From positions 248,001 to 312,000 of the forward strand of contig NIVC01000491.1 of NCBI GenBank assembly GCA_002269645.1: DNA of 64,000 nt. Reading direction: 5' to 3'. The position numbers and the translations under genes were made by a program. The DNA comes from Macrostomum lignano (taxonomy: Eukaryota). Every line of letters starts with the position of its first letter. Within the stretch, counting starts at the first letter, position 1. The notes under the pieces were generated by a model. That model was not told the DNA's origin and searched no databases. It saw only the letters and a list, made by a program, of their open reading frames with translations. Shown here one piece after another: positions 33,937-47,175 of this stretch.

Positions 33937-36048
33937 CTAAGACTCGTACCTGAGCTCGGGATCTGCTTCAGCCGTCGCAACTCGCTCCGCTCGAGAACTG
34001 CGCCAGAGACCGGGGCTCAGCGCGAGCGACGCCTGCTCAAGCAACCGGGCCGCCGTTGACTCATTGAGGCAGGCCCTGCGCAGATCTTCCGGCTGCGCCT
34101 TGGCCCGGCCGAAGTAGCGCAGCAGAAACAGCAGCATGTGGCGGGGATGCGTCAGGCAGCGCGACAGCGGGTCGCTCAGCAGCTGCCAGGACCCCGGCAT
34201 ATGGTGAGCTCGAAACTGAAAGTCGTGCCTCAGCGCTGCCAGAGTGGCCGTTTTGAGCAGGGTCATGACGATCGGGTTGCTGGAGGCACCGCGGTTGATG
34301 GTGCCGACCGCCGCGCTGCTGTCGACGTAGCAGGCCACCTTGCCGCCGGCCAGCTGCTCCTGGAACAGAATGATGGCGAGCAGCGGCAGTACCGTCTCCT
34401 TGGCGTTGATGTGCTCGCTCAGGAAGATGCCACCGGCGTCACTGCAGAAGTCGACGAGGCGGAACTCGCGCTGGCCATCAGAGGTGCTCAGGATCATGCC
34501 ACCGGCACTGACGCAGGCGTCCGTCTCGACCGCTGCCAGCATTCGTGCACGCCGCCACAGCTTGTCGGTCGGGAACACTGGGATTGCATGCTGCCAGAAC
34601 TGCAACTGGGCCAGTAGCTCGCCGCGCACCGGTACTCGATGATGCTGCTCAGGAATAGCGATGGTTATCTCCAGAAGCGCGCGAAGCAGGGCCTTTGCAG
34701 GTTTGGCCACTTTGCAGAACCAGTTCAGTTTGCCGACTAGGTGCTGAAGGCGACGTTTTTGCAGGCTCTTCGAGTTGGCGCAGTCCTGGAGAAGTTCTCG
34801 AAGGCCGTCCATCTTCTCGGCGGGCAGTGACAGCAGGCCAGTCAATGTGTCGATCTGCACACCCAGGAAAGTGACCGAAGTGGCTGGGCTCTGCGTCTTG
34901 GCCCAGTTGATCTCAAAGCCGAGGCGCTGCAGGGTGGCCAGCAGAAAATTGTGCAGCTGCAGGCAGACCTCGTAGTCCTGGGCAGCTATGCAGAAATCGT
35001 CGAGGTATGCGATGACGACGAATTTGGACAGATGCGAGAATTGCCTGTACATGAAGCGCTTGACAGCTTGCGTTAGGCGGTGGAAAATGTTGACTGATGC
35101 CGCCGCACCGAATGGGAGTCGCGTGTCAACCAGATAGGTGGGCTGACCGTCCAGCTCGAACGTCCACCGGAGCCCCGTCGCCTTATAGCAGTCTGGGTGC
35201 ACCTGAACACTTCGGTAGGCGTGGCGTAGGTCGACCTTGCTGATGAACCAGCTTGGTGCCAGCTGCCTGGTGAGATCCTCGACATTAGCAAACTTCATCT
35301 TCTGGCGGGGCTTGTACAGATCGTTGAGGCTGTTGCCCTGTGGCGCGGACGCGTCGTGAATCAAGCGGATGGCGCCGTCTGCCTTCGGGACGGCGCCCAG
35401 TGGGCTGATGATGGTCGGCCTGGCGATGCCCAAGTCAGTTGCGCGGATGTACCGGCCAGCCACGACCTCCTCTCTGATCTGCAGCTCAACGGCATTCCGA
35501 TTTGCCTCGCAGCAGGCGGATGCATGATTTTCGAGCTGGGATTCGCTGGTCGGAGCCGCGTCGGTGATGCGAAAGCCATCGCGAATTCCCGCGATCAGAA
35601 ACTCCGCGTCCGAGTCTCCGAGCAGGACTGGTGTCCAAGCAGCAGTTAACAGCGGCCAACGTTTTCGAAGTGCAGCCACCGGGCCGGCAACAGGGCCGGC
35701 AGCAGCGCCGGCAGCAGGGCCGGCAGCAGGGCCGGCGGCTGGGCCGGAAGCAGGGCCGGCAGCAGGACCGGCAGCAGGGCCGGCGGCTGGGCCGGCAGCA
35801 GGACCGGCAGCAGGGCCGGCAGCAGGGCCGGCGGCAGGGCGAGCGGCAGGGCGAGCGGCAGGGCGAGCGGCAGGGCGAGTGGCAGGTCGAGCGGCAGAGC
35901 GAGCGGCAAGGCGAGTGGCAGGGCGAGCGGCAGGGCCAGTGGCAGTGCGAGCAGCTGTCTCGCATGGAATTAAAATTTTGGACTGTCTATCAGACGCCGT
36001 CCGCTTAGGGCTAAAACTGGTGCCGCCGCGACCCGCCTCTTTGCTCAG
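33937..36048 (-). CDS. DIRS/Ngaro-type reverse transcriptase + RNase H (pol), probably made as gag-pol by -1 frameshift
   Basis: ISPLGAVPK, RLIHDAS, KVDLRHAY, RLPFG, YLDD, FLGVQID; RNase H TDA...HINAKE...VDSSAAV...HMPG..LSDPLSR; frame open upstream through the AAGP repeat to 36156. Confidence 0.88.
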   Translation of the reverse strand: MSKEAGRGGTSFSPKRTASDRQSKILIPCETAARTATGPAARPATRLAARSAARPATRPAARPAARPAARPAAGPAAGPAAGPAAGPAAGPAAGPAAGPASGPAAGPAAGPAAGAAAGPVAGPVAALRKRWPLLTAAWTPVLLGDSDAEFLIAGIRDGFRITDAAPTSESQLENHASACCEANRNAVELQIREEVVAGRYIRATDLGIARPTIISPLGAVPKADGAIRLIHDASAPQGNSLNDLYKPRQKMKFANVEDLTRQLAPSWFISKVDLRHAYRSVQVHPDCYKATGLRWTFELDGQPTYLVDTRLPFGAAASVNIFHRLTQAVKRFMYRQFSHLSKFVVIAYLDDFCIAAQDYEVCLQLHNFLLATLQRLGFEINWAKTQSPATSVTFLGVQIDTLTGLLSLPAEKMDGLRELLQDCANSKSLQKRRLQHLVGKLNWFCKVAKPAKALLRALLEITIAIPEQHHRVPVRGELLAQLQFWQHAIPVFPTDKLWRRARMLAAVETDACVSAGGMILSTSDGQREFRLVDFCSDAGGIFLSEHINAKETVLPLLAIILFQEQLAGGKVACYVDSSAAVGTINRGASSNPIVMTLLKTATLAALRHDFQFRAHHMPGSWQLLSDPLSRCLTHPRHMLLFLLRYFGRAKAQPEDLRRACLNESTAARLLEQASLALSPGLWRSSRAERVATAEADPELRYES

Positions 36049-37024
36049 TTTTTTGATTCGGCAGCCACCGAGCTGTGTTGCAGCTTTGAGTGGCTCCCTT
36101 CGCAGATGCGGCAGATGTGGGCGAAATTGCAGGTGTGTCTGTGACAGCCTTTGTTGCTATTGAACAGGCCGCAGATGACCTGTCCAGCGGATGACAGCTG
36201 GCCCCTGCTACGGTGACCCTGGACTCCTTGACCGACCGCGACTGGGCCAGCAGCTCGCAGGTTTTTGGGCGCCGTCATATGCTTGATGATGAGGTTCAGA
36301 TCGGGGCTGTCCCAGTCGCGCTGTCGCGAGTGCTGCTGCAGCCTCATGTCCTGGTCGTACTGGAGCACCACCTTCCAGTCGTAGCCAGCATCGATCAGCT
36401 CGCCGATGTGGATGTTAAAGTTGAGGTAGGCGTTCAGACTCTTGCAGTCGGGCTGTCCATCCGTACCGGGTGCCACCAGCTGGCCGGTCTCCAGCAGTCG
36501 CTGCATGATCCGCGCGTTGGCAGCCACCCACTGGCCGAAGTTGACTCCGGACAGGCTCGGCGTTGCGCCTTTCAGAGTCAGGCGACCACGATCCTGTGTC
36601 AGCCATCCTCCCGACTGCTGCCTCTCGTCCAGAAATTCCGGGATGAGCAGCGCTGATGGCGGCCGCTGGGCTCCGGCCGAATCAAACCTCGGTTGTCGGC
36701 TCTGGTCCCCGAACAGGCTGGCGTAGATGTCCGGCCCTCCTCTGGCCAGCGGGGGCGATGCGGCGCCACTGCGGATCGACTGCACTTCATCCCGCAACTG
36801 GGCCTCAGCCTTCTGCAGTTTAAGCAGCTCGATCCTCTTCTGAGTCTGCCGAATCTGCGCTTCTGTGGCCTCCTCCGCTGGCGCAGCCCGGCGCACGTCA
36901 TCCTCGTCCTGGTCGTCGTCACCGTCGTCATCGCTGGGAGCTCGTTCGGCCTGGCTTGCAGCGAGCAGGCGGCCTATCAGCTCTTCTTTATTGCCACTTG
37001 TAGGTAAGGCCTTCTCGCGTAAGG
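36045..37024 (-). CDS. gag-like protein, 3' part (SAP remainder, acidic tract, C-terminal CCCH/CCHH zinc fingers); 5' part at 47175-47130
   Basis: ICGLFNSNKGCHRHTCNFAHICRICEGSH; frame open from 37024 to the stop at 36045. Confidence 0.8.
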
Positions 37025-37030
37025 CATCTT

Positions 37031-37979
37031 ACTACTAAGGGCCGGCAGATCCGCCGACTCTGGAGGTGAGGTGGGTGTCAACCCTCCTCGCCTCTCATTG
37101 GCTGGCGCCCCGATCACTAGGTGATCGATACCCGTATCGATATCGGCGCTCGGCGCGCGCGCGCCGCAGGCACGTGGCGCCAAGCGCCGTCCAGCCGCAG
37201 GCGACCCTCCCCAGCCACCGGCGACCCTCCCCAGCCGCAGGCGCACCTACCGATATGTATGCTCACCCTACCGACATGTACCCCGATATGTATGCCCTCC
37301 CGAGCCGCAGGCGCACCCTCCCTCCAGAGCAGCAGGCGCCCATGCTGCAGGCGCCCCATGCTGCAAGCACCCCGAGTGTACACTCTCCCAAGCCGCAGGC
37401 ACCCGAGTGTACACTCTCCCATGCCGCAGGCACCCCGAGTGTACACTCTCCCCAGTACGGGTGTACACTCTACCACTCTCCCGATATGTATGCATACACA
37501 GATATCTAGTCAGCGATATTAGGCTAGTGAAAACTACTTATAGTAGATGAAATTGCGTATATTTACATAAAAAGTAGATAAAACATATTGGTAGGTGTGA
37601 ATAATGACGCATAATGCATATTAAAATGTACATATTGGAGCATATGAGCAGCAAAAACACACAATGTAGGTGCATGGGCAGAAATAGACAAAGCAGGTAC
37701 TGTAGGCGCTACATAGGTGGAAATACACACAGCAGGTTTACAAAGTGTACTTTCGATACATATCGGATTAATGTATAAAGCAGGTTTACAAGGCATGCAT
37801 AAGGTGTAGTTGTATAATGCAGGTGCGCATGTATAATCCGATTATAGGCAAACGCCCAGGTGCAATTTCAACAGACGCGTAAATAATGTCACACCGACTA
37901 AAGAGTAAATATTGTCTAACCAGCAGGTGCATAAAAATTTTAAACAAAAGCGGTTCGGGGAAATACCAAAAGGGAGGTT
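37031..37979. repeat. Left terminal inverted repeat (949 bp)
   Basis: Reverse complement of 46182-47129 with only a few mismatches and one indel seen. Confidence 0.95.
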
Positions 37980-38233
37980 TTAGCCGCCCGTTTTCGCCAC
38001 CACCGCCGCCCTAACCCTCTTATGGGTACAATTGCGTTGAAAGTATTTCGGGTCATTAGGTTGTAATGACCTCCATATTTTAGGTGGGTGGACTCGAGCC
38101 CGGGGCCAGCCCATTACAGTTTTTTGGGCCGGCCCCTCTGCCAATTTCCTCCCTAGGAGCGAGCTATCAGAATTGGTCTTTTAACCCCCGTGTATACACA
38201 CATAGAGGCCCCCCAGCTAGCGCCCATTCTAAC

Positions 38234-39310
38234 CTACCCAGTGTACAGTGTTGGGTTCCCCAAACCGCGTACAAAGAGAAAAACCCTTATCAGTCAATCT
38301 CCATACGCTCCCTCAGGGCTGTCTCGTACGCGGCCTCTTCCTCCACGCTCTCGAAGCAGTAGTCGGATGACTGGCAATGTGGAAATTATAACAGTCAATG
38401 TAGATAGAATATATGCAAGGTATATGATTAGATGAGTTGTGTATATAATGTAATATCTTACCAAATCTAAATCGTCCTCCAGCCGCCACAGACGTAGAGA
38501 CGCTGTATAGCGCACCAACGAAAGGTGCTCCTCCCAGTTGGAGGGACAGATAGCTGCGGCGGGCTCATCCCACGCGGTTGGCCGCGCTCCCGGACCGGCC
38601 AGGTACGCCTCAGAGTCGGGGGCATACGAATTGCGCCCCATCAACCAGTCCTGGTGCAGAGTCTCAGCCTCCAGCACCTCCCGTAGGCCGGCACCCCTCG
38701 CAACCAAAGTATCAAGAACCCGATTAAAGGCTCTGACAAAGGTGGCTTGGGAGGGCAGCCCGCCTGGGTGGCGAGACCTCAACCAGTCAATGTCCCCGCG
38801 GAAAAATGAGGCCACAATGCGGGGAAAGCGCTCACGAACCACGGCGATCTCCTCAGACATATCCTCGTCCTCGTCGTCGAAGAGAAGGAGCGTAGCGGCT
38901 GATGATATTGAGGCCCGGTGGGAGGTAGTTGAAGCAGCAGCAGAGACGGGCGTAGTAGAGGCGGCAGCAGCAGAGACGGGCGCAGCAGAGGCAGGGCCGG
39001 TTGTGGTCAGCTCCTCAACAGAGACGTCAAAGAGGGCGGCTGAGGCGGTAGTCAAATCGGAGGCAGTAGCAGCAGGGGCGCCGTTCACAACCCCGCCGAT
39101 AGCCAGCAGCGGGAGGTCAAAAACTTCAGACTCGGTGTCGCTATCATAGGACATAGCCCAAGCTAGATATTGATCAGCCTCCCAATTATCACTTCCGTTG
39201 TTTTCAGTGCCTAGGGGAACTATGTGTTCTGGGATATCCCCGTCGAGGCTGGTTAACTCTTCAGTCGGGCGATTATTATCCCAGAGGTTGGATAGAGCTC
39301 GGCGGGACAT
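38234..39310 (-). CDS. Orphan acidic/Ala-rich protein of the element; probably 2 exons (39310-38462 and 38367-~38227)
   Basis: 338-aa ORF with its own TATATAA (~39380-39387) and CCAAT; TTG|gtaag donor and ttgccag acceptor suggest a spliced 3' end; no family recognised. Confidence 0.55.
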
Positions 39311-39424
39311 GCTAGAATCAACAGAGAGTAAAGTATTAGAGCTGAGATAGGGTTTGACTCTCTGGAGAGGGGAAACACTAATTATATAGACGGATCGAGT
39401 GAGGCGGTGTGAGCCAATAGGAAA

Positions 39425-39958
39425 CTAGCAGTCCCAACCCTCGTTAAACAGATTTTCCCAGGGCGGAGATTGGTAGGGTTTGAGACCCACGAGCTGAAGA
39501 ACATCCACCTCAGTCCCGGCTACCGGAGGCGTGTCTGTCTTGACTCGCTTGGCTGGAGGGGGTGCCTCAGGTGCCGGCTTGAAGAGCTTGTCCAAATGGG
39601 CGGCAAACAGCCTGCGCCACAGTTCAGGCGTGAATTCGATCGTGTAGCGCCAATTAAACTTTGGTTCCCGATTGAGCCAATTGCGCAGCAAACGGATCCT
39701 CCCTCGCGAAGCTTCAACTGCCTTGAAATTGCCCAACAGGACCCGCTTGTTCACGTGAAGGCGGGCAGCAGCCTCCAGGTCAGGGCGCGCAGCTTCGAGC
39801 TTCTTCCACTCTGGCTCGGCCAAGTAGATTGCAGGGAAGCCGTCCTTCCACACTCCAGCCTCGTTGGTGTAGAGACGCCGAATTTCAATCAAGTTGTGTT
39901 CAGTTTCAAATGTGGGCTTCCGCGCCACAAAGTTTTCGTATAGAGAGATAGAAGACAT
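39425..39958 (-). CDS. Tandem PC4-like ssDNA-binding protein candidate (177 aa)
   Basis: IEIRRLY..EAG.WK.G..AIYLAEPEWKKL resembles the PC4 consensus DIR.Y...G...P.KGISL..EQW..L; second weaker copy RLLRNW...YTIEFTPELWRRL; NLS-like PAKRVK; TATA at ~40008-40013. Confidence 0.6.
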   Translation of the reverse strand: MSSISLYENFVARKPTFETEHNLIEIRRLYTNEAGVWKDGFPAIYLAEPEWKKLEAARPDLEAAARLHVNKRVLLGNFKAVEASRGRIRLLRNWLNREPKFNWRYTIEFTPELWRRLFAAHLDKLFKPAPEAPPPAKRVKTDTPPVAGTEVDVLQLVGLKPYQSPPWENLFNEGWDC

Positions 39959-40202
39959 GATTTAGCAGCAGCAGCAGCAGAGAGCTCTCTGACAGCCGTG
40001 CAGCGCCTTATATACCCCCGGATGGAGGGTGGGGTGGGTGGTGATTTTGGGGGTGATTTTTGATGATTTTGGTTGGTTTTTGGCGATTTATCCAATAACA
40101 GGCGAGCTGAGCAGATTTTTTAGTATATATACAGACCCCCAGAGCCAGGGTAGAGAGATAATCCTTCTCTCCGCTCGCTCTCTCACACTCTCTGTTTGCA
40201 AA

Positions 40203-43200
40203 ATGGCTAAACGCAGCGCCGCAGCAACTGCTTTCCAGGCTGACAAGAGGCAACGTCTTTATGGTAAGTTTTAATTAATTTCTGTCTAGACTGTAGTTGC
40301 TAGGGTGGGGGTAGGGGCTGAGCAGCAGCAGCAGCTGCAGGGTCTGTGGGACCGCAGAGTAAACAACAAAGACTGGGACTGCTGCGACAGCTGCAGGGGT
40401 CTAGACTGGAGTTGCTAGGGTGGGGTGCTGCGGCAGCTGCAGGGGTTTAGCCAAGACAGACTGGGGCTGCAGATAGGGTGGTGTCTAGACAGGCTGCAGC
40501 AGGGGTGCAGATAAGAAATTGCAGCAAAAACAGAGAGTAGCTGCGGCTGGGTGGCAGAGTAAACAACAAAGACTGGGACTGCTGCGACAGCTGCAGGGGT
40601 CTAGACTGGAGTTGCTAGGGTGGGGTGCTGCGGCAGGGTCTGTAACAGAGAGTTGCAGGGGAGGGCTAGACAAGTTTCAGCCGGGTTAGCAGCAGCTGCA
40701 GGGTCTGTGGGACCGCAGAGTAAACAACAAAGACTGGGACTGCTGCGACAGCTGCAGGGGTCTAGACTGGAGTTGCTAGGGTGGGGTGCTGCGGCAGCTG
40801 CAGGGGTTTAGCCAAGACAGACTGGGGCTGCAGATAGGGTGGTGTCTAGACAGGCTGCAGCAGGGGTGCAGATAAGAAATTGCAGCAAAAACAGAGAGTA
40901 GCTGCGGCTGGGTGGCAGAGTAAACAACAAAGACTGGGACTGCTGCGACAGCTGCAGGGGTCTAGACTGGAGTTGCTAGGGTGGGGTGCTGCGGCAGGGT
41001 CTGTAACAGAGAGTTGCAGGGGAGGGCTAGACAAGTTTCAGCCGGGTTAGCAGCAGCTGCAGGGTCTGTGGGACAGCAGTCTAGACTGGGGCCTCGGGTG
41101 GGGTGTTGTCTAGACAGGGAGGGTGTGCTGATAAGAAATTGCTGCAAAAACAGACAGTTGCTAGGGTGCTGCGGCAGATAAGAAATTGCTGCAAAAACAG
41201 ATAATCGTTGGGGCTGGCTAGACAGGCTGCAGCTAGGTGCAAATTGCTGCGACAGAGAGTTGCAGGGGTGAGTAAACAAAGACTGCTGCGACAGGCTGCA
41301 GCGGGGGTGCAGATAAGAAATTGCAGAGAGTTGCTGCGGGGACAGCAGAGTAAACTCTGTTAAGAAATTGCTGGGGCTAGGGCGGGGAAACACGCTGGGG
41401 CCAGGAAAATGACAGATTCTTCTGGTTTTTTATCTCCTTGTGTTTTTTCAGACGCGTTTGTTCCGCCTGCTCAACCTGAATCTGTTACCGGACCGGGTGA
41501 GTTATCTAGCCCCCATTCCTCAGACAGACCCACGGGCTGACTCACACTCCCCCATTCCCCCCATGCAGGTTTTACGGCCCGGCTGGATAATCAGCGCGAC
41601 CTCCCCAAGTTTAGGGCAAAGGGCGTTGAATATGTTGTAAAGCTAGATGACACCGAAGATTTACGCGAGACATTTGCCAGTTTGCTCGATGTCTTTAAGC
41701 AAGATTTGGCTGGTGATGACTTTATGGCGGCTAAATTCGAGAGTGATAATATGCTCAAAGCAGCCCACACTCCCCCGGTACGCGCAGCCCGCATGACAGC
41801 AGAGTTGTTGTTTAAGCACATTGACAAGATTGTGCAGTCAGACGCAAGCGTACTGTCGAGCAACTTTTCTATCCGGTTGCTAAAGGCCTGGGTGCCTCGA
41901 GGTGGCTGTGCTCTCGAGAACAAACATCTAGAGGAGCGCCACACCTTCTCCAAGCACTATGTCCGCATCACCAACTCGGACAAGAGATGCCTGCTGCGCG
42001 CTCTGGTCGTGGCCTGCGCCTACCTGCAATTTGTGGTCAAGTCCATCACCGAGCAGGTGTGGCGTACAATCAAGGCCAATTCGCCTGCCCAGACTAAGCT
42101 GGTGGCGGAGCTGCAAATCGAAGCGGGCCTCTACTCGGTAAGTTTCTAGTATTTTTCCTGATAATAATTTTTACACAGTCCTGGAATACTAAAAGAATTT
42201 ACACAGTATCAGGGAATACTAAAAGAATTTTTACACAGTATCGTGGAATACTAAAAGATATATTTTCTGATAAGAATTTTTACACAGTATCGTGGAATAC
42301 TAAAAGATATATTTTCTGATAAGAATTTTTACGCAGTATCATGGAATACTAAAAGAATTTTACATAGTATCAGGGAATACTAAAAGAAATATTTTACCCC
42401 CCACACAGACTCTTCAAACCGTCTCGCAGGCCGGTCCTTTTGGGGTGGATGCACTGCCCGAAGCGATCCGTGCCCTGAACCGGCTGCATCCAGGCCACGA
42501 TTTCGGTGTACGCGTGTACCGCGCAGAGGAGGCCAACAGGTGCATCTTCAACCTGCCTGGCACCGAGATTCTGCACCTCCACCTGGTCGAGCAGCACTTT
42601 AATGTGGTTACCAAGCTGCCTGCGTTTTTCGGCTCCGATCACTACTGCCCCAAGTGCGAGATGGCCTATGATTGCAGCAACGCCAAGCACAAGTGTGCTG
42701 ACGCCTGTAGCACCTGCAAGACTCCGGGCTCCAACTGTAAGGCAAACCGCGCATATGTAAGATGCCATGATTGCGGGCTAAATTGCTATAATGCTCAGTG
42801 CCTAGAAAATCACAAGCGCAAGAATAAGGCCGGCAGATCGCGCTGTGATTCGGTCCACGTTTGCGGCACGTGTGGTTATCTAGAAGAACTAAAAGTAGGC
42901 CAGCCCCCTGAGCATCAGTGCGGTTACGCCAAGTGTCCAGTCTGCAAGCAGTACGCCGAAACGGCCACCCACGAGTGCTTTGTCACCCCGCCAAAAGCCA
43001 AAGAGTCTAGCGCCCCGTATGTTTACTATGATTTCGAGACGTACTTGGACTCTGGCAAGCAGCACCGGGTACACTTGGTTACGGCTGCCACCTCCTGCGA
43101 GGCGTGTCCCAAACTCTTCCCCAGGCCCCGCTGCAGCGTGTGCGGGGGACTACACAGCTCAGCCAATTGCATTGCGGGACGCGATTTGGCACTCGATTTC

Positions 43201-44356
43201 ACGAGCTGTGTCTCGCACAATGACTGTGCCTGTGGGATGCGAGAGTTTGTATCTGTCGGGCCGCACTCTATCGATGCCTTTTACTGCTGGCTGACTAGTG
43301 TGTTCAAGCAGGGGGCAATTGCTATTGCGCACAATGGCTCCGCGTATGACGCATTCCTCCTGCTCGGCGCCCTACTCAACGGACTGGCCAAGAAGAAGCC
43401 GCAGGTGATCTTCCAGAACAGCCGCCTAATGTACATGAAGTGCGACAAGATCACCTTCAAGGACAGCCTCAATTTCATCCCTATTGGTCTGGCGCAATTC
43501 CCAAAGGCGCTTGGTTTGGGCACCCAACTGACCAAAGGAGATTTCCCGCACGTGTTTAACCAGCCGGAAAACTGGGGGTACGTGGGACCCTACTGCTCAA
43601 TTGATATGTATGGAGGAAAGAAAAACAAGCAGCATGACTCCATCGCCGACTGGCTGGCCAAGCAGGAGGGACAGGTGTTTAATTTCAATAAGGAGTACCT
43701 GGACTACTGCCTGCAGGACACGTTAATTTTGCGGGAAGGCTGTCTAAAGTATGCCCGCCTGATTAAGGACATTTGCGGACTGGACGCATTTGTTCAATCC
43801 AACACCATTGCGGGCTTGGCCATGGCAGTATTCACCACCAAGTTTATGGAGCCCAACACTCTTGGGGTGATTTCCCGCCGGTCCGATGTACAGTCGCACA
43901 AGGCGCGGTGCTGGCTTGCGCATTTGAATGCAACCGAGTTTGGCGGCCGGTTGCGGACAGCGGACTCGGGCGGCGAGGCTTTCGCCATGGGCCGTAAGGT
44001 CGACGGCTTCGACCCAGAGACCAGGACAGTGCTGCAGTTTCACGGCTGTTTCTTCCATGGCTGTCCCAAGTGCTTCCCCAACGGTGACGTGCTGCACCCG
44101 CTCAAGAACCAGCCAATGCGGGCGATTTATGAAGAGACTGAGCGCTTCAGCCGGCTGCTCTCCACTGCATACAATGTACGTGTCATGTGGGAGCACGACT
44201 ATCAGGGCGAGGGAGCGCCAGTCCAGCAGCCCATCCGCCTGGAGGAAGCCCTGTTTGGCGGTCGCACCGAGGCTTTTGTCCCGCACGCCGAGGCCACCGA
44301 GACTGTAGAGCTGCGCTATCGGGATGTGGTAAGTTTTTTCAAAATTTCTTATGTAC

Positions 44357-44391
<35 letters not shown>

Positions 44392-45826
44392 CACACAGTT
44401 GACATGGGTTTGAGTTTATCTTATCCTCTTATCCTCTAGGTGTCGCTCTACCCGACTGTCAACAAGTTTGACAAGTACCCTGTCGGGCACCCGGTTCACC
44501 ACCCCGAGCCTCATCTACTGGATGAGCTGCAGCTGGCCCGGTATTTTGGCATCGCCGAGGTGTCAATTCTGCCGCCAACCAATCTCCACATTCCGCTACT
44601 GCCCGCCAAGATTAACAAGAAGCTGGTTTTCGGCCTCTGCCGCGTCTGCATGGAGACACAGTGCAGCAGCGAGTGTACACACACTGACGCTGAGAGAATG
44701 CTCCGCGGCACGTGGTCGACCCCAGAGCTCCACAAAGCCCTGCAGTTGGGTTACAAGCTGCAGTCAGTTCATGCCCTGGCCTATTGGACCGAGACTCGCA
44801 CGGGCCTGTTTGCGGATTATGTAAACACCTTTTTAAAGCTCAAAGCAGAGTCTAGCGGTTCGCCGGGGATGACTGAGGACGCCAAGGCTGCCTACATGGC
44901 CAGCTTTTTCGAGCGCGAAGGCGTCCGGCTGGAAAAGGTGGAAGAAAATCCCGGCCTGCGCTTTGTGGCCAAGATTTTTCTAAACTCGTAAGTTTTTCTA
45001 CTTGCAGTGGGGGACCATGTTTTTCTACTTTCAGTAGCCAGATATACAAAAATTTATTTTTCCCTGCAGGCTCTGGGGCAAATTCTGCCAGCGTGACGAC
45101 CTGACCTCCACAGAGATTGTGGACAGCTACGAGGCGTGGCTGCAGCGCCTGACAGACCCCTCGATCAAGGTCAAGTCGTGTGAGCCAATTGGGGAGAGCT
45201 TCATGATGCTCGAGTACAAGCCCCGATTTGGCGGTGCTGGCGAGCGGGCATTCAAGTACGCCAATGTACCTATTGGAGTTTTCACCACCTCCCACGCCCG
45301 GCTGCGACTCTACGAGGCTCTGGAGGGTCTAGGAACCCGAGTCATTTACGCCGATACTGATTCGTAAGTAATTTTTTCACTGTCTCTGTCTCTCTTTCTC
45401 CCCTTAACACTATATCCTTCTCCTCCTCCCAGGGTCGTATACCGGTGCTCTCCGGGCGAGTACGAGCCTCCGGGCGGTTCGAGTTTGGGGCAGTGGACTG
45501 ACGAAGTACCTGCTGGCTGCCGCATGGTACAGTTCACCACGGGAGGCCCCAAGCTCTACCGGTACGTGGTGGAGAAGCCCGACAGGTCGCTGTACTCGGT
45601 GCTCAAGTGCAAGGGCATCAGAGTCACGCCCGAGATTTCCGAGCGTGAGGACGAGCTGCAGGAAATTCTGCGCCACGGGGGCTCTGTCCGCCTGCCCCAG
45701 GCCCAGTTCAGGCGCGATAAGGCCAGCTGTACAATCCGGACCCTGGAGATGGACAAGACTTTCCAGCGCGTGATGACTAAGAGGGTGTATGGGGCCGCCA
45801 GCCGTCCGTATGGCTTTCGGGAGTGA
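40203..45826 (+). CDS. polB: Protein-primed family B DNA polymerase, 7 exons: 40203-40263, 41452-41496, 41569-42137, 42409-44328, 44440-44987, 45070-45363, 45433-45826 (3831 nt, 1276 aa)
   Basis: ExoI YYDFET, ExoII AHNGSAYD, ExoIII YCLQDT; motifs YRDV|VSLYP, KIFLNS|LWGK and YADTDS|VVY are restored by GT-AG splicing; all junction phases checked against the ORF frames. Confidence 0.93.
40290..41400. repeat. Complex repeats inside polB intron 1, including a 361-bp tandem duplication
   Basis: Identical ORFs 40485..40673 and 40846..41034 offset by 361 nt. Confidence 0.85.
42165..42390. repeat. AT-rich minisatellite inside polB intron 3
   Basis: ttttacacagtatcgtggaatactaaaaga repeats. Confidence 0.85.
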
Positions 45827-46181
45827 GTGAGAGATAAGGATCTGTCTTTGCACGCCTGGGATTCCCCTATGTGCCCACTTGGGATCCCTTGACTCTTGGG
45901 GTTGAAAAATGGTTTTACGCTCGCACTGTACTTAGGGGTCCTTACTCATTTGACACCTCCACTGTACATTGAGCGGGATCCCCTCAAGTGTTAAAACTCC
46001 CATTTGACACCTATTCCCTCGGGGCGGTTTGTGGCCCAGCGGTCCGCCTCTTGGAGTAGAACTCCTGACATGAACTTGCTGCGCTGATTAGCGTACTGAT
46101 AGCGTAATCGAAATACGTCCATTTTCCTAGCCCACTTGTGGGTTTAATTGTGTTGAAAGTATATCGGGTCATTAGGCCGTG

Positions 46182-47129
46182 AACCTCCCTTTTGGTATTT
46201 CCCCGAACCGCTTTTGTTTAAAATTTTTATGCACCTGCTGGTTAGACAATATTTACTCTTTAGTCGGTGTGACATTATTTACGCGTCTGTTGAAATTGCA
46301 CCTGGGCGTTTGCCTATAATCGGATTATACATGCGCACCTGCATTATACAACTACACCTTATGCATGCCTTGTAAACCTGCTTTATACATTAATCCGATA
46401 TGTATCGAAAGTACACTTTGTAAACCTGCTGTGTGTATTTCCACCTATGTAGCGCCTACAGTACCTGCTTTGTCTATTTCTGCCCATGCACCTACATTGT
46501 GTGTTTTTGCTGCTCATATGCTCCAATATGTACATTTTAATATGCATTATGCGTCATTATTCACACCTACCAATATGTTTTATCTACTTTTTATGTAAAT
46601 ATACGCAATTTCATCTACTATAAGTAGTTTTCACTAGCCTAATATCGCTGACTAGATATCTGTGTATGCATACATATCGGAGAGTGGTAGAGTGTACACC
46701 CGTACTGGGGAGAGTGTACACTCGGGGTGCCTGCGGCATGGGAGAGTGTACACTCGGGTGCCTGCGGCTTGGGAGAGTGTACACTCGGGGTGCTTGCAGC
46801 ATGGGGCGCCTGCAGCATGGGCGCCTGCTGCTCTGGAGGGAGGGTGCGCCTGCGGCTCGGGAGGGCATACATATCGGGGTACATGTCGGTAGGGTGAGCA
46901 TACATATCGGTAGGTGCGCCTGCGGCTGGGGAGGGTCGCCGGTGGCTGGGGAGGGTCGCCTGCGGCTGGACGGCGCTTGGCGCCACGTGCCTGCGGCGCG
47001 CGCGCGCCGAGCGCCGATATCGATACGGGTATCGATCACCTAGTGATCGGGGCGCCAGCCAATGAGAGGCGAGGAGGGTTGACACCCACCTCACCTCCAA
47101 AATCAACGGATCTGCCGGCCCTTAGTAGT
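46182..47129. repeat. Right terminal inverted repeat (948 bp)
   Basis: Reverse complement of 37031-37979. Confidence 0.95.
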
Positions 47130-47175
47130 CATCTTTGAGGGCCTGCACGGTCATGCTGCCTAACGTAGAGTCCAT
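47130..47175 (-). CDS. gag 5' fragment (MDSTLGSMTVQALKD), cut off by the Polinton-like insertion
   Basis: Joins in frame to 37024 when one TSD copy and the element are removed. Confidence 0.85.

Follow-up and report, generated by a model that had tools for sequence, protein, structure and literature searches.

How can a Polinton-like element that has a polymerase gene and no integrase or capsid gene be inserted at many sites in a genome? The question is raised by a 10.1-kb element at positions 37031–47129 of a 64,000-nucleotide stretch of the flatworm Macrostomum lignano (assembly GCA_002269645.1, contig NIVC01000491.1, positions 248,001 to 312,000, forward strand; hereafter the window). Most likely, a virus-like transposon has become divided into two elements. 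This one would be the half that copies the DNA, and a separate 10-kb partner with the same DNA ends carries the capsid and integration genes.

Both ends of the element start with ACTACT. The left terminal inverted repeat (TIR; 949 bp, 37031–37979, plus strand) and the right TIR (948 bp, 46182–47129, minus strand) differ by 4 substitutions and one 1-bp indel. The 6-bp sequence CATCTT is present as an exact target-site duplication on both flanks (37025–37030 and 47130–47135). The insertion splits an open reading frame (ORF) with a SAP domain, which belongs to a retroelement and is readable on either side; thus, the duplication is a true insertion scar. The near-identical TIRs of about 950 bp and the duplication had been described in a first-pass annotation made from the sequence, and both are borne out. 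Its intact spliced polymerase of 1276 aa is confirmed by a check of seven exons one by one with phase. Its account of a PC4-like gene and one orphan gene, with no integrase or capsid, also holds, although the PC4 label comes from weak matches. The ORF list and Pfam contain no integrase, ATPase, protease or capsid gene in cis.

Polintons/Mavericks are defined in the available parts of PMC8097293 and PMC11071296. According to the former, intact vertebrate Mavericks are 12.7–24.6 kb long, all their genes are intronless, and their ends are (AGT)2, (AG)3 or (AC)3A. The element by itself agrees with Polintons/Mavericks in its protein-primed family B polymerase (pPolB), long TIRs and 6-bp target duplication. 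It differs from them in the lack of integrase, ATPase, protease and capsid genes in cis and of intronless genes, in its length outside 12.7–24.6 kb, and in its ends, which are not (AGT)2 or (AG)3.

The pPolB gene has 7 exons with GT/AG borders and no internal stop, and its 3831 nt correspond to 1276 codons plus the stop. Pfam DNA_pol_B_2 (PF03175) is matched above the cut-off in exon 4 (E 4e-15) and exon 5 (E 1e-12). For the order TP-vOTU-EXO-PALM, the Cys, His and exonuclease motifs are seen, and a terminal-protein region is presumed; the domain names (terminal protein, OTU-like) follow the available text of PMC11161782. The full exonuclease motifs are kept, and there is no helicase match in pPolB. 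The 12 closest homologues are 55–99% identical, and 11 of them are labelled M. lignano; among 150 pPolB relatives, those outside the family are at most about 41% identical. Neither a polymerase exon nor the alignment of the capsid protein described below found relatives among the viral contigs searched. A single metagenome locus, at 29%, has capsid and protease-like genes.

The element belongs to a family, here called polymerase family 1. All of the 18 candidates scored, out of 546 in a DNA search, are further copies with 90–95% identity. The TIR motif of the family has 248 matches (control, 0), and 31 of the 35 pairs among the 100 matches listed span 8–11 kb, with a median of 9.4 kb. These are counts of assembly loci and may include duplicated haplotypes. 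Each of nine further polymerase-type pairs, picked for intact ends, has its own 6-bp duplication. A short subfamily lacks the orphan gene. Compared with the window copy over exon 4, 37–97 synonymous and 10–32 replacement differences are seen in 17 of 18 copies (one gapped copy is uncounted; one copy has a stop). Synonymous changes exceed replacements about 3 to 5 times, which indicates that the family 1 polymerase is under purifying selection. The many insertions with different 6-bp duplications, together with this excess, support the earlier proposal of a lineage rather than a single deletion copy. Neither a full-length parent with the same TIRs, in the spans and motif matches examined, nor the neutral decay of a defective derivative was observed.

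The terminal 22-mer of the element, with up to 2 mismatches, has 38 matches in the genome, and C2210 is among them. C2210 is a 13.9-kb element with the target duplication CACAGG and its own 671-bp TIR. Its first 31 nt are the same as the right end of the window element, and the TIR then differs. The outer 31 bp of the right TIR of the window element are identical to both C2210 ends, and the outermost 31 bp of the left TIR are also common to the family of C2210, capsid family 1. No pPolB, PC4 or orphan match is found in C2210 (best E 0.02). Its integrase matches rve above the cut-off (E 1e-9) with visible D, D and E residues, and a chromodomain is matched below the cut-off (E 0.05). The integrase and chromodomain are in separate frames in C2210, and in one frame in several other family 1 copies (379 aa) and in C1070 of the second pair described below (357 aa).

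A 427-aa protein of C2210 is predicted to be a double jelly-roll major capsid protein. Its model reached a predicted local distance difference test score (pLDDT) of 75.4 with a 12-sequence alignment, versus 32 from one sequence, and Foldseek matched it to capsid proteins of PBCV-1, mavirus and iridovirus at E 3e-16 to 5e-16. Pfam missed this protein: only one of 12 members gave a match, at E 0.005. ATPase-like and protease-like ORFs are also present. PDB sequence searches gave nothing useful for the capsid protein and the ATPase-like ORF, and the ATPase-like and protease-like ORFs remained unnamed in Pfam, PHROGs and PDB searches. The Pox_A32 profile of Pfam matches nothing in the genome; this blank is uninformative because the profile also misses the ATPase-like ORF of the partner. 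Between the chromodomain and capsid genes is a 387-aa ORF without a PHROGs match, which is, from its position, a candidate minor capsid protein. No replication-protein family was found by Pfam in the 14 ORFs of the capsid element. A Fic-domain gene (E 6e-14, L032:2471-3334) is located beside a TIR of capsid family 1 and was undetected in the family 2 copy C1070.

The length of C2210 is not typical. The TIR motif of capsid family 1 has 68 matches, and 19 of 22 pairs span 8–11 kb, with a median of 10.5 kb. The three larger spans contain inserts or no genes, and the excess of C2210 is a 3.1-kb AT-rich insert. The first-pass annotation had proposed an integration-dependent lineage mobilised by a full-length helper Polinton with the same termini. 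Part of this stands: the polymerase lineage maintains itself and must borrow an integrase. The helper has to be revised, since the element that shares the ends carries the capsid and integrase genes, is of the same size and lacks a polymerase. The dependence thus looks mutual.

The separation of the two gene sets is seen genome-wide. A capsid motif common to both capsid families (a second one is described below) has 58 matches, and 44 of them are flanked on both sides by capsid-type TIRs; 39 of these are in spans of up to 11.5 kb, and the longest span is 14.3 kb. A polymerase motif common to both polymerase families has 100 matches. Comparing the 100 with the 58, no polymerase motif lies within 47 kb of a capsid motif, and the nearest is at 47.9 kb. 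Four contigs hold both motifs, 48, 166, 468 and 606 kb apart. No complementary genes are present in five oversized spans, of which either the whole or the stretch of extra DNA was read. As candidates for a full-length parent, they were rejected one by one: C4 has an insert after the ATPase and no polymerase match (5.4 of 13.9 kb read), C56 has no Polinton gene in 18.4 kb, C2285 and C2286 have retroelement ORFs, and in C2210 the excess is the AT-rich insert.

The same division is found in a second pair. C1485, 9.6 kb long and bounded by TIRs, carries pPolB without any match to the capsid module; in C1070, which is 10.1 kb long and also bounded by TIRs, the capsid module and integrase are present and pPolB is missing. 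Their terminal 31 bp are 90% alike and start with ACTACGTA instead of ACTACTA. Polymerase family 2 is 63–64% identical to the family 1 polymerase, and capsid family 2 is 86–88% identical to family 1. Introns 3–6 are at the same positions in both polymerases. The TIR motifs of the two second families have about equal numbers of matches, 68 and 73. Spans of 8–11 kb are seen in 21 of 27 pairs of capsid family 2 (median 10.2 kb) and in 8 of 21 pairs of polymerase family 2, where 11 are shorter. Between the pairs, replacement over synonymous divergence (dN/dS) is 0.067/2.2 for the capsid, 0.083/1.9 for the ATPase-like ORF, 0.14/1.1 for the integrase and 0.29/3.2 for the polymerase; the comparison of the protease is saturated. 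These values indicate purifying selection on both halves. Low dN over saturated dS in both halves therefore implies that both were kept functional for a long time while apart.

The ends follow the pairs. Among 41 ends, terminal 31-mers have mean identities of 0.77 and 0.75 within pairs versus 0.48–0.54 across pairs. The cognate end type is kept in all 10 elements whose ends were picked by internal TIR motifs, and 9 of these 10 have a perfect 6-bp duplication; in another set, 10 of 11 elements have duplications. At positions about 8–27 of the 31-mer, a few discrete variants recur; within a pair, polymerase-type and capsid-type elements alike have them, in mixed order. The recurrence of these variants suggests an exchange of ends among co-replicating molecules. 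Two copies (C135:296891-306596 and C41:487604-497376) have two TIRs that are only 85% and 74% alike, in the parts compared, within a perfect 6-bp duplication. They are possibly mosaics formed before insertion, or assembly artefacts. The mixed terminal variants and such unlike TIRs would be in keeping with free linear molecules that swap ends in a common pool. A stretch of about 20 bases just inside the 31-mer is shared across the pairs, by capsid family 2 and polymerase family 1 (L053:513-535 versus window 37062–37080).

It is probable that these elements are bipartite Polintons whose halves complement each other in trans. The essential genes of the two segments are complementary and the segment termini are common, as in a multipartite genome. 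Taken together, the two segments have the Polinton features missing from each, the rve integrase (with a weak chromodomain) and the double jelly-roll capsid protein included. Segment P, of about 8.5–10 kb, encodes the protein-primed polymerase and the PC4-like protein. Segment C, of about 10.5 kb and located elsewhere in the genome, has the DDE integrase with chromodomain, the capsid, ATPase-like, protease-like and several unnamed genes, and no polymerase. The two are inserted independently of each other, both with 6-bp duplications. The terminal 31 bp could be both the common origin and the end recognized by the integrase. The terminal protein of pPolB would prime at the shared end, and both segments would be copied as free linear DNA. 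The integrase of segment C would then insert both, which would generate the 6-bp duplications. Capsid, ATPase and protease may package both segments, probably one segment of about 10 kb per particle. Terminal-protein priming in these steps follows the Polinton mechanism in the available text of PMC11161782. Both segments are close to 10 kb, which hints that each particle would hold one segment, by analogy with bidnaviruses. A single split that predates the divergence of the two pairs is the simplest history. We lean slightly towards a stronger version, an integrating double-stranded DNA virus that is truly bipartite: the polymerase segment would replicate the two, its partner would integrate and package them, each in a capsid of its own with a capacity of about 10 kb, the split would be old enough to have given at least two co-diverging pairs, and spliceosomal introns would have been gained only on the polymerase segment.

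Several observations weigh against the split. Complementation, free linear DNA and particles are inferred here from the DNA sequence. The ATPase-like (Walker A/B) and protease-like (His-Asp-Gln-Cys) ORFs are labelled by motifs read by eye. Motif searches miss diverged copies, the listing of the TIR motif covered 100 of the 248 polymerase-family matches, and the oversized spans C271 (40.6 kb), C1313, C4549 and C12 are outside those read. Among the 58 capsid-motif matches, 14 lack one or both TIRs (13 with one TIR, 1 with none). Many ends of pair 1 were found by the terminal motif, which inflates the identity within the pair, and pair 2 is represented by 5 ends. Capsid family 2 shares TIR bases 32–50 with polymerase family 1, across the pairs. 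At C106:354003-374984, polymerase-type TIRs lie 21 kb apart around an integrase-chromodomain gene of the ordinary type, with no family 1 gene in the first 10 kb (10 of 21 kb read). Ordinary Polintons are also present in the genome: C4619 and C4948 contain intronless pPolB genes of 1469–1478 aa, 8 kb from capsid genes with 30% identity, and integrases of ordinary Polintons with 34–37% identity are numerous. Such intronless Polintons could be rival helpers.

Three other explanations can be considered. If the dependence were one-way, host enzymes would copy the capsid/integrase element, and the polymerase element would be a satellite or a plasmid-like passenger whose ends imitate those of that element, so that it is integrated and packaged. 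The complementary genes and the common ends are also expected under this explanation, and polymerase family 1 outnumbers its partner (248 versus 68 TIR-motif matches), as a parasite might. It also gains from the several unnamed genes of the capsid element, one of which could serve replication, although Pfam finds no replication-protein family in any of its 14 ORFs. Moreover, linear ends of this kind need protein priming, which is established for Polintons as far as the available text of PMC11161782 goes; the two families of the second pair are about equal in number; and each polymerase family has kept its cognate capsid family. One-way dependence is therefore unlikely.

Alternatively, both families could be separate semi-autonomous parasites of ordinary full-length Polintons, which would supply the missing functions. 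Helpers of this kind are abundant, given 73 capsid-domain matches, intronless pPolB frames over 1100 aa and the 34–37% integrases, and C106 contains an ordinary-type integrase within polymerase-type TIRs. Yet the terminal 22-mer, with up to 2 mismatches, has no match on C4619, C4948, C2466, C201 or C234 (the ends of the ordinary Polintons were unread), the ordinary proteins are only 30–37% identical, and it would be left unexplained why ends are shared within pairs and different between them, and why the split is at the same place twice. We consider this quite unlikely. Still less can be said for an origin of both families by deletion from a full-length ancestor within the lineage, one that the assembly lacks or contains only in broken form. 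In its favour, the assembly consists of 5269 contigs, 14 capsid-motif matches are without a TIR on at least one side, and the searches give lower bounds. One parent should have left whole TIRs in common, whereas only 31 bp of 670–950 bp are shared; both halves show purifying selection over a saturated synonymous distance, and the five oversized spans are without complementary genes. Of the two findings that the first-pass annotation named as counting against its view, descent by internal deletion from an ordinary full-length Polinton family and an orphan ORF that is an integrase or capsid, neither turned up: no full-length parent was found, and the orphan matched no integrase or capsid in Pfam, PHROGs or Atlas. 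The origin by deletion is very improbable, and the bipartite Polinton remains the preferred one.

Non-autonomous Polinton derivatives keep the ends, lack genes and are moved in trans. Gene-less or short derivatives of the flatworm families are present (C56, C251, C1). The two main families differ from them: their gene sets are intact, selected and complementary, and a full-length parent did not turn up. The two segments together resemble the animal Polintons/Mavericks (adintoviruses) in pPolB with OTU-like Cys/His, rve integrase and chromodomain, double jelly-roll capsid, long TIRs and 6-bp duplications. They differ in that the genes are divided between two elements of about 10 kb that insert separately, in the six introns of pPolB, and in the ends ACTACT or ACTACG. 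The flatworm split does not run along the two modules of vertebrate Mavericks, where the ATPase belongs with pPolB.

According to the available parts of PMC4061559, PMC8502044 and PMC8363768, Bidnaviridae (Bombyx mori bidensovirus) and the Drosophila Vesanto virus have segmented linear genomes with a Polinton-derived pPolB and matching termini, and the segments are packed separately. The flatworm pair shares with them the Polinton-type pPolB and the matching segment termini. Unlike it, these viruses are single-stranded, have a parvovirus-type capsid, carry pPolB and capsid on one segment and lack an integrase. In the flatworm, the double jelly-roll capsid and pPolB are on different segments, and each of the two integrates. 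The ORF list and Pfam revealed no parvovirus-type capsid or superfamily 3 helicase ORF on the element. Cytoplasmic linear plasmids and transpovirons are Polinton-derived linear replicons minus the capsid module, as described in the part of PMC11161782 that is available. Segment P is like them in the loss of the capsid module; unlike it, they have no cognate polymerase-less capsid/integrase partner. Transpovirons have a polymerase-helicase and are associated with giant viruses, whereas segment P has no helicase match and is inserted with 6-bp duplications at many sites.

In published descriptions, a Polinton is a single self-synthesising unit, and it is common for surveys (e.g., a nematode survey) to demand all core genes in one 20-kb block, by which split forms would be missed. 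No split or bipartite Polinton appears in the literature searched, in the available portions of PMC11161782, 10.1101/2022.07.12.499685, PMC8502044, 10.1101/2023.08.22.554363, PMC4061559, PMC11071296, PMC6431247, 10.64898/2026.10.13.758929, PMC8363768, PMC11131425 and PMC12220804, supplements being outside the search. Repbase and Dfam were also outside it, and therefore the families may already be catalogued there separately. If the split is true, two mutually dependent, selected non-autonomous elements would be a natural model for the origin of multipartite viruses. They would also be a double-stranded, integrating counterpart of the segmented bidnaviruses, whose polymerase is of Polinton origin. 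The purifying selection seen on a capsid element unable to copy itself also bears on whether animal Polintons form particles. With spliced polymerase contigs in public runs, free segments and particles can be sought directly in M. lignano, which is kept in the laboratory.

The PC4-like gene (39425–39958, minus strand, 177 aa) is named from weak matches, Pfam PC4 at E 0.1 and Atlas at 0.86–0.87, the latter as a lead only. Homologues with 44–45% identity are beside the family 2 polymerase, and homologues with 30–34% identity are beside ordinary Polinton integrases; the latter point to descent from an ordinary Polinton, as judged by sequence likeness. PC4 was undetected in the family 2 copies C1485 and C2285 and is present in other family 2 copies. 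Selection on the gene within family 1 was not demonstrated (0–4 synonymous versus 4–9 replacement changes). The protein is probably a single-stranded DNA-binding replication helper. Between the starts of the PC4-like gene and pPolB is a divergent intergenic region (39959–40202), which presumably contains their promoters.

The orphan gene is on the minus strand. Its main exon (38462–39310), with an acidic, low-complexity N-terminal half, is present in the long subfamily only. Its short last exon (38290–38370) is supported by a CT..AC joint at 38370–38462 in runs X1 and X10; gene model P0179 ends there, and the frame runs to 38294. The main exon shows 9–10 synonymous and 2–3 replacement changes in all five long copies, which are not mutually independent. 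Pfam, PHROGs and Atlas gave no integrase, capsid or other family match, and its homologues are confined to M. lignano. The orphan gene is dispensable, because a short subfamily exists without it. A transposase identity was rejected: one UniRef label reads DDE_Tnp_1_7, yet the six homologues have six different automatic names, and no homologue has a Pfam match better than E 0.008.

The pPolB gene is on the plus strand. Exon 1 (40203–40263) is placed by its frame and by a similar MASKR-type start upstream of the family 2 polymerase. It is followed by the 1188-bp intron 1 (40264–41451), which contains an internal duplication of 392 nt at 99.7% and differs in length among copies. Exon 2 (41452–41496) is supported by a spliced joint and its frame. 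Exon 3 (41569–42137), assigned by its frame, contains what is presumed to be the terminal-protein region, together with the OTU-like Cys. Exon 4 (42409–44328), with the OTU-like His, a Cys-rich region and the exonuclease motifs, is supported by Pfam and a joint at its acceptor; it also contains an insert that we presume to be nuclease-like. Polymerase motif A continues across intron 4 into exon 5 (44440–44987; Pfam, spliced joint and frame). Motif B and a DTD motif are in exon 6 (45070–45363; spliced joint and frame), and exon 7 (45433–45826; frame) ends with the stop codon. Spliced joints in contigs of three runs (X1, X10 and X19), which are guessed to be RNA and whose reads may derive from other copies, skip introns 2, 3, 4 and 5 and the orphan intron. 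No joint for intron 1 or 6 is among the 15 of 17 joints listed, which leaves exon 1 as the least supported exon. The joint of intron 2 (41497–41568) also occurs in X2, a run guessed to be DNA, where just 18 letters lie on one side of it; the intron 2 region aligns throughout in 16 of 17 copies tested, and partly in one.

The host retroelement outside the element (33937–37030, minus strand) consists of the SAP-domain ORF, cut near its start, and a reverse transcriptase ORF. The SAP-domain ORF ends in a Cys/His motif and overlaps the reverse transcriptase ORF (33937–37030, 47130–47160), and no recombinase or integrase ORF follows the latter. We presume that this retroelement is DIRS/Ngaro-like. 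Elsewhere in the genome, a third variant of the polymerase motif occurs at C110:785244, C561:123433 and C561:394993, possibly a third polymerase family. The capsid proteins P0016–P0018, at 80%, show that there is a further lineage. On C261, C251, C816, C382, C1485 and C157, elements of different families are often nested or only a few kb apart, each with its own ends; these sites are possibly insertion hot spots.

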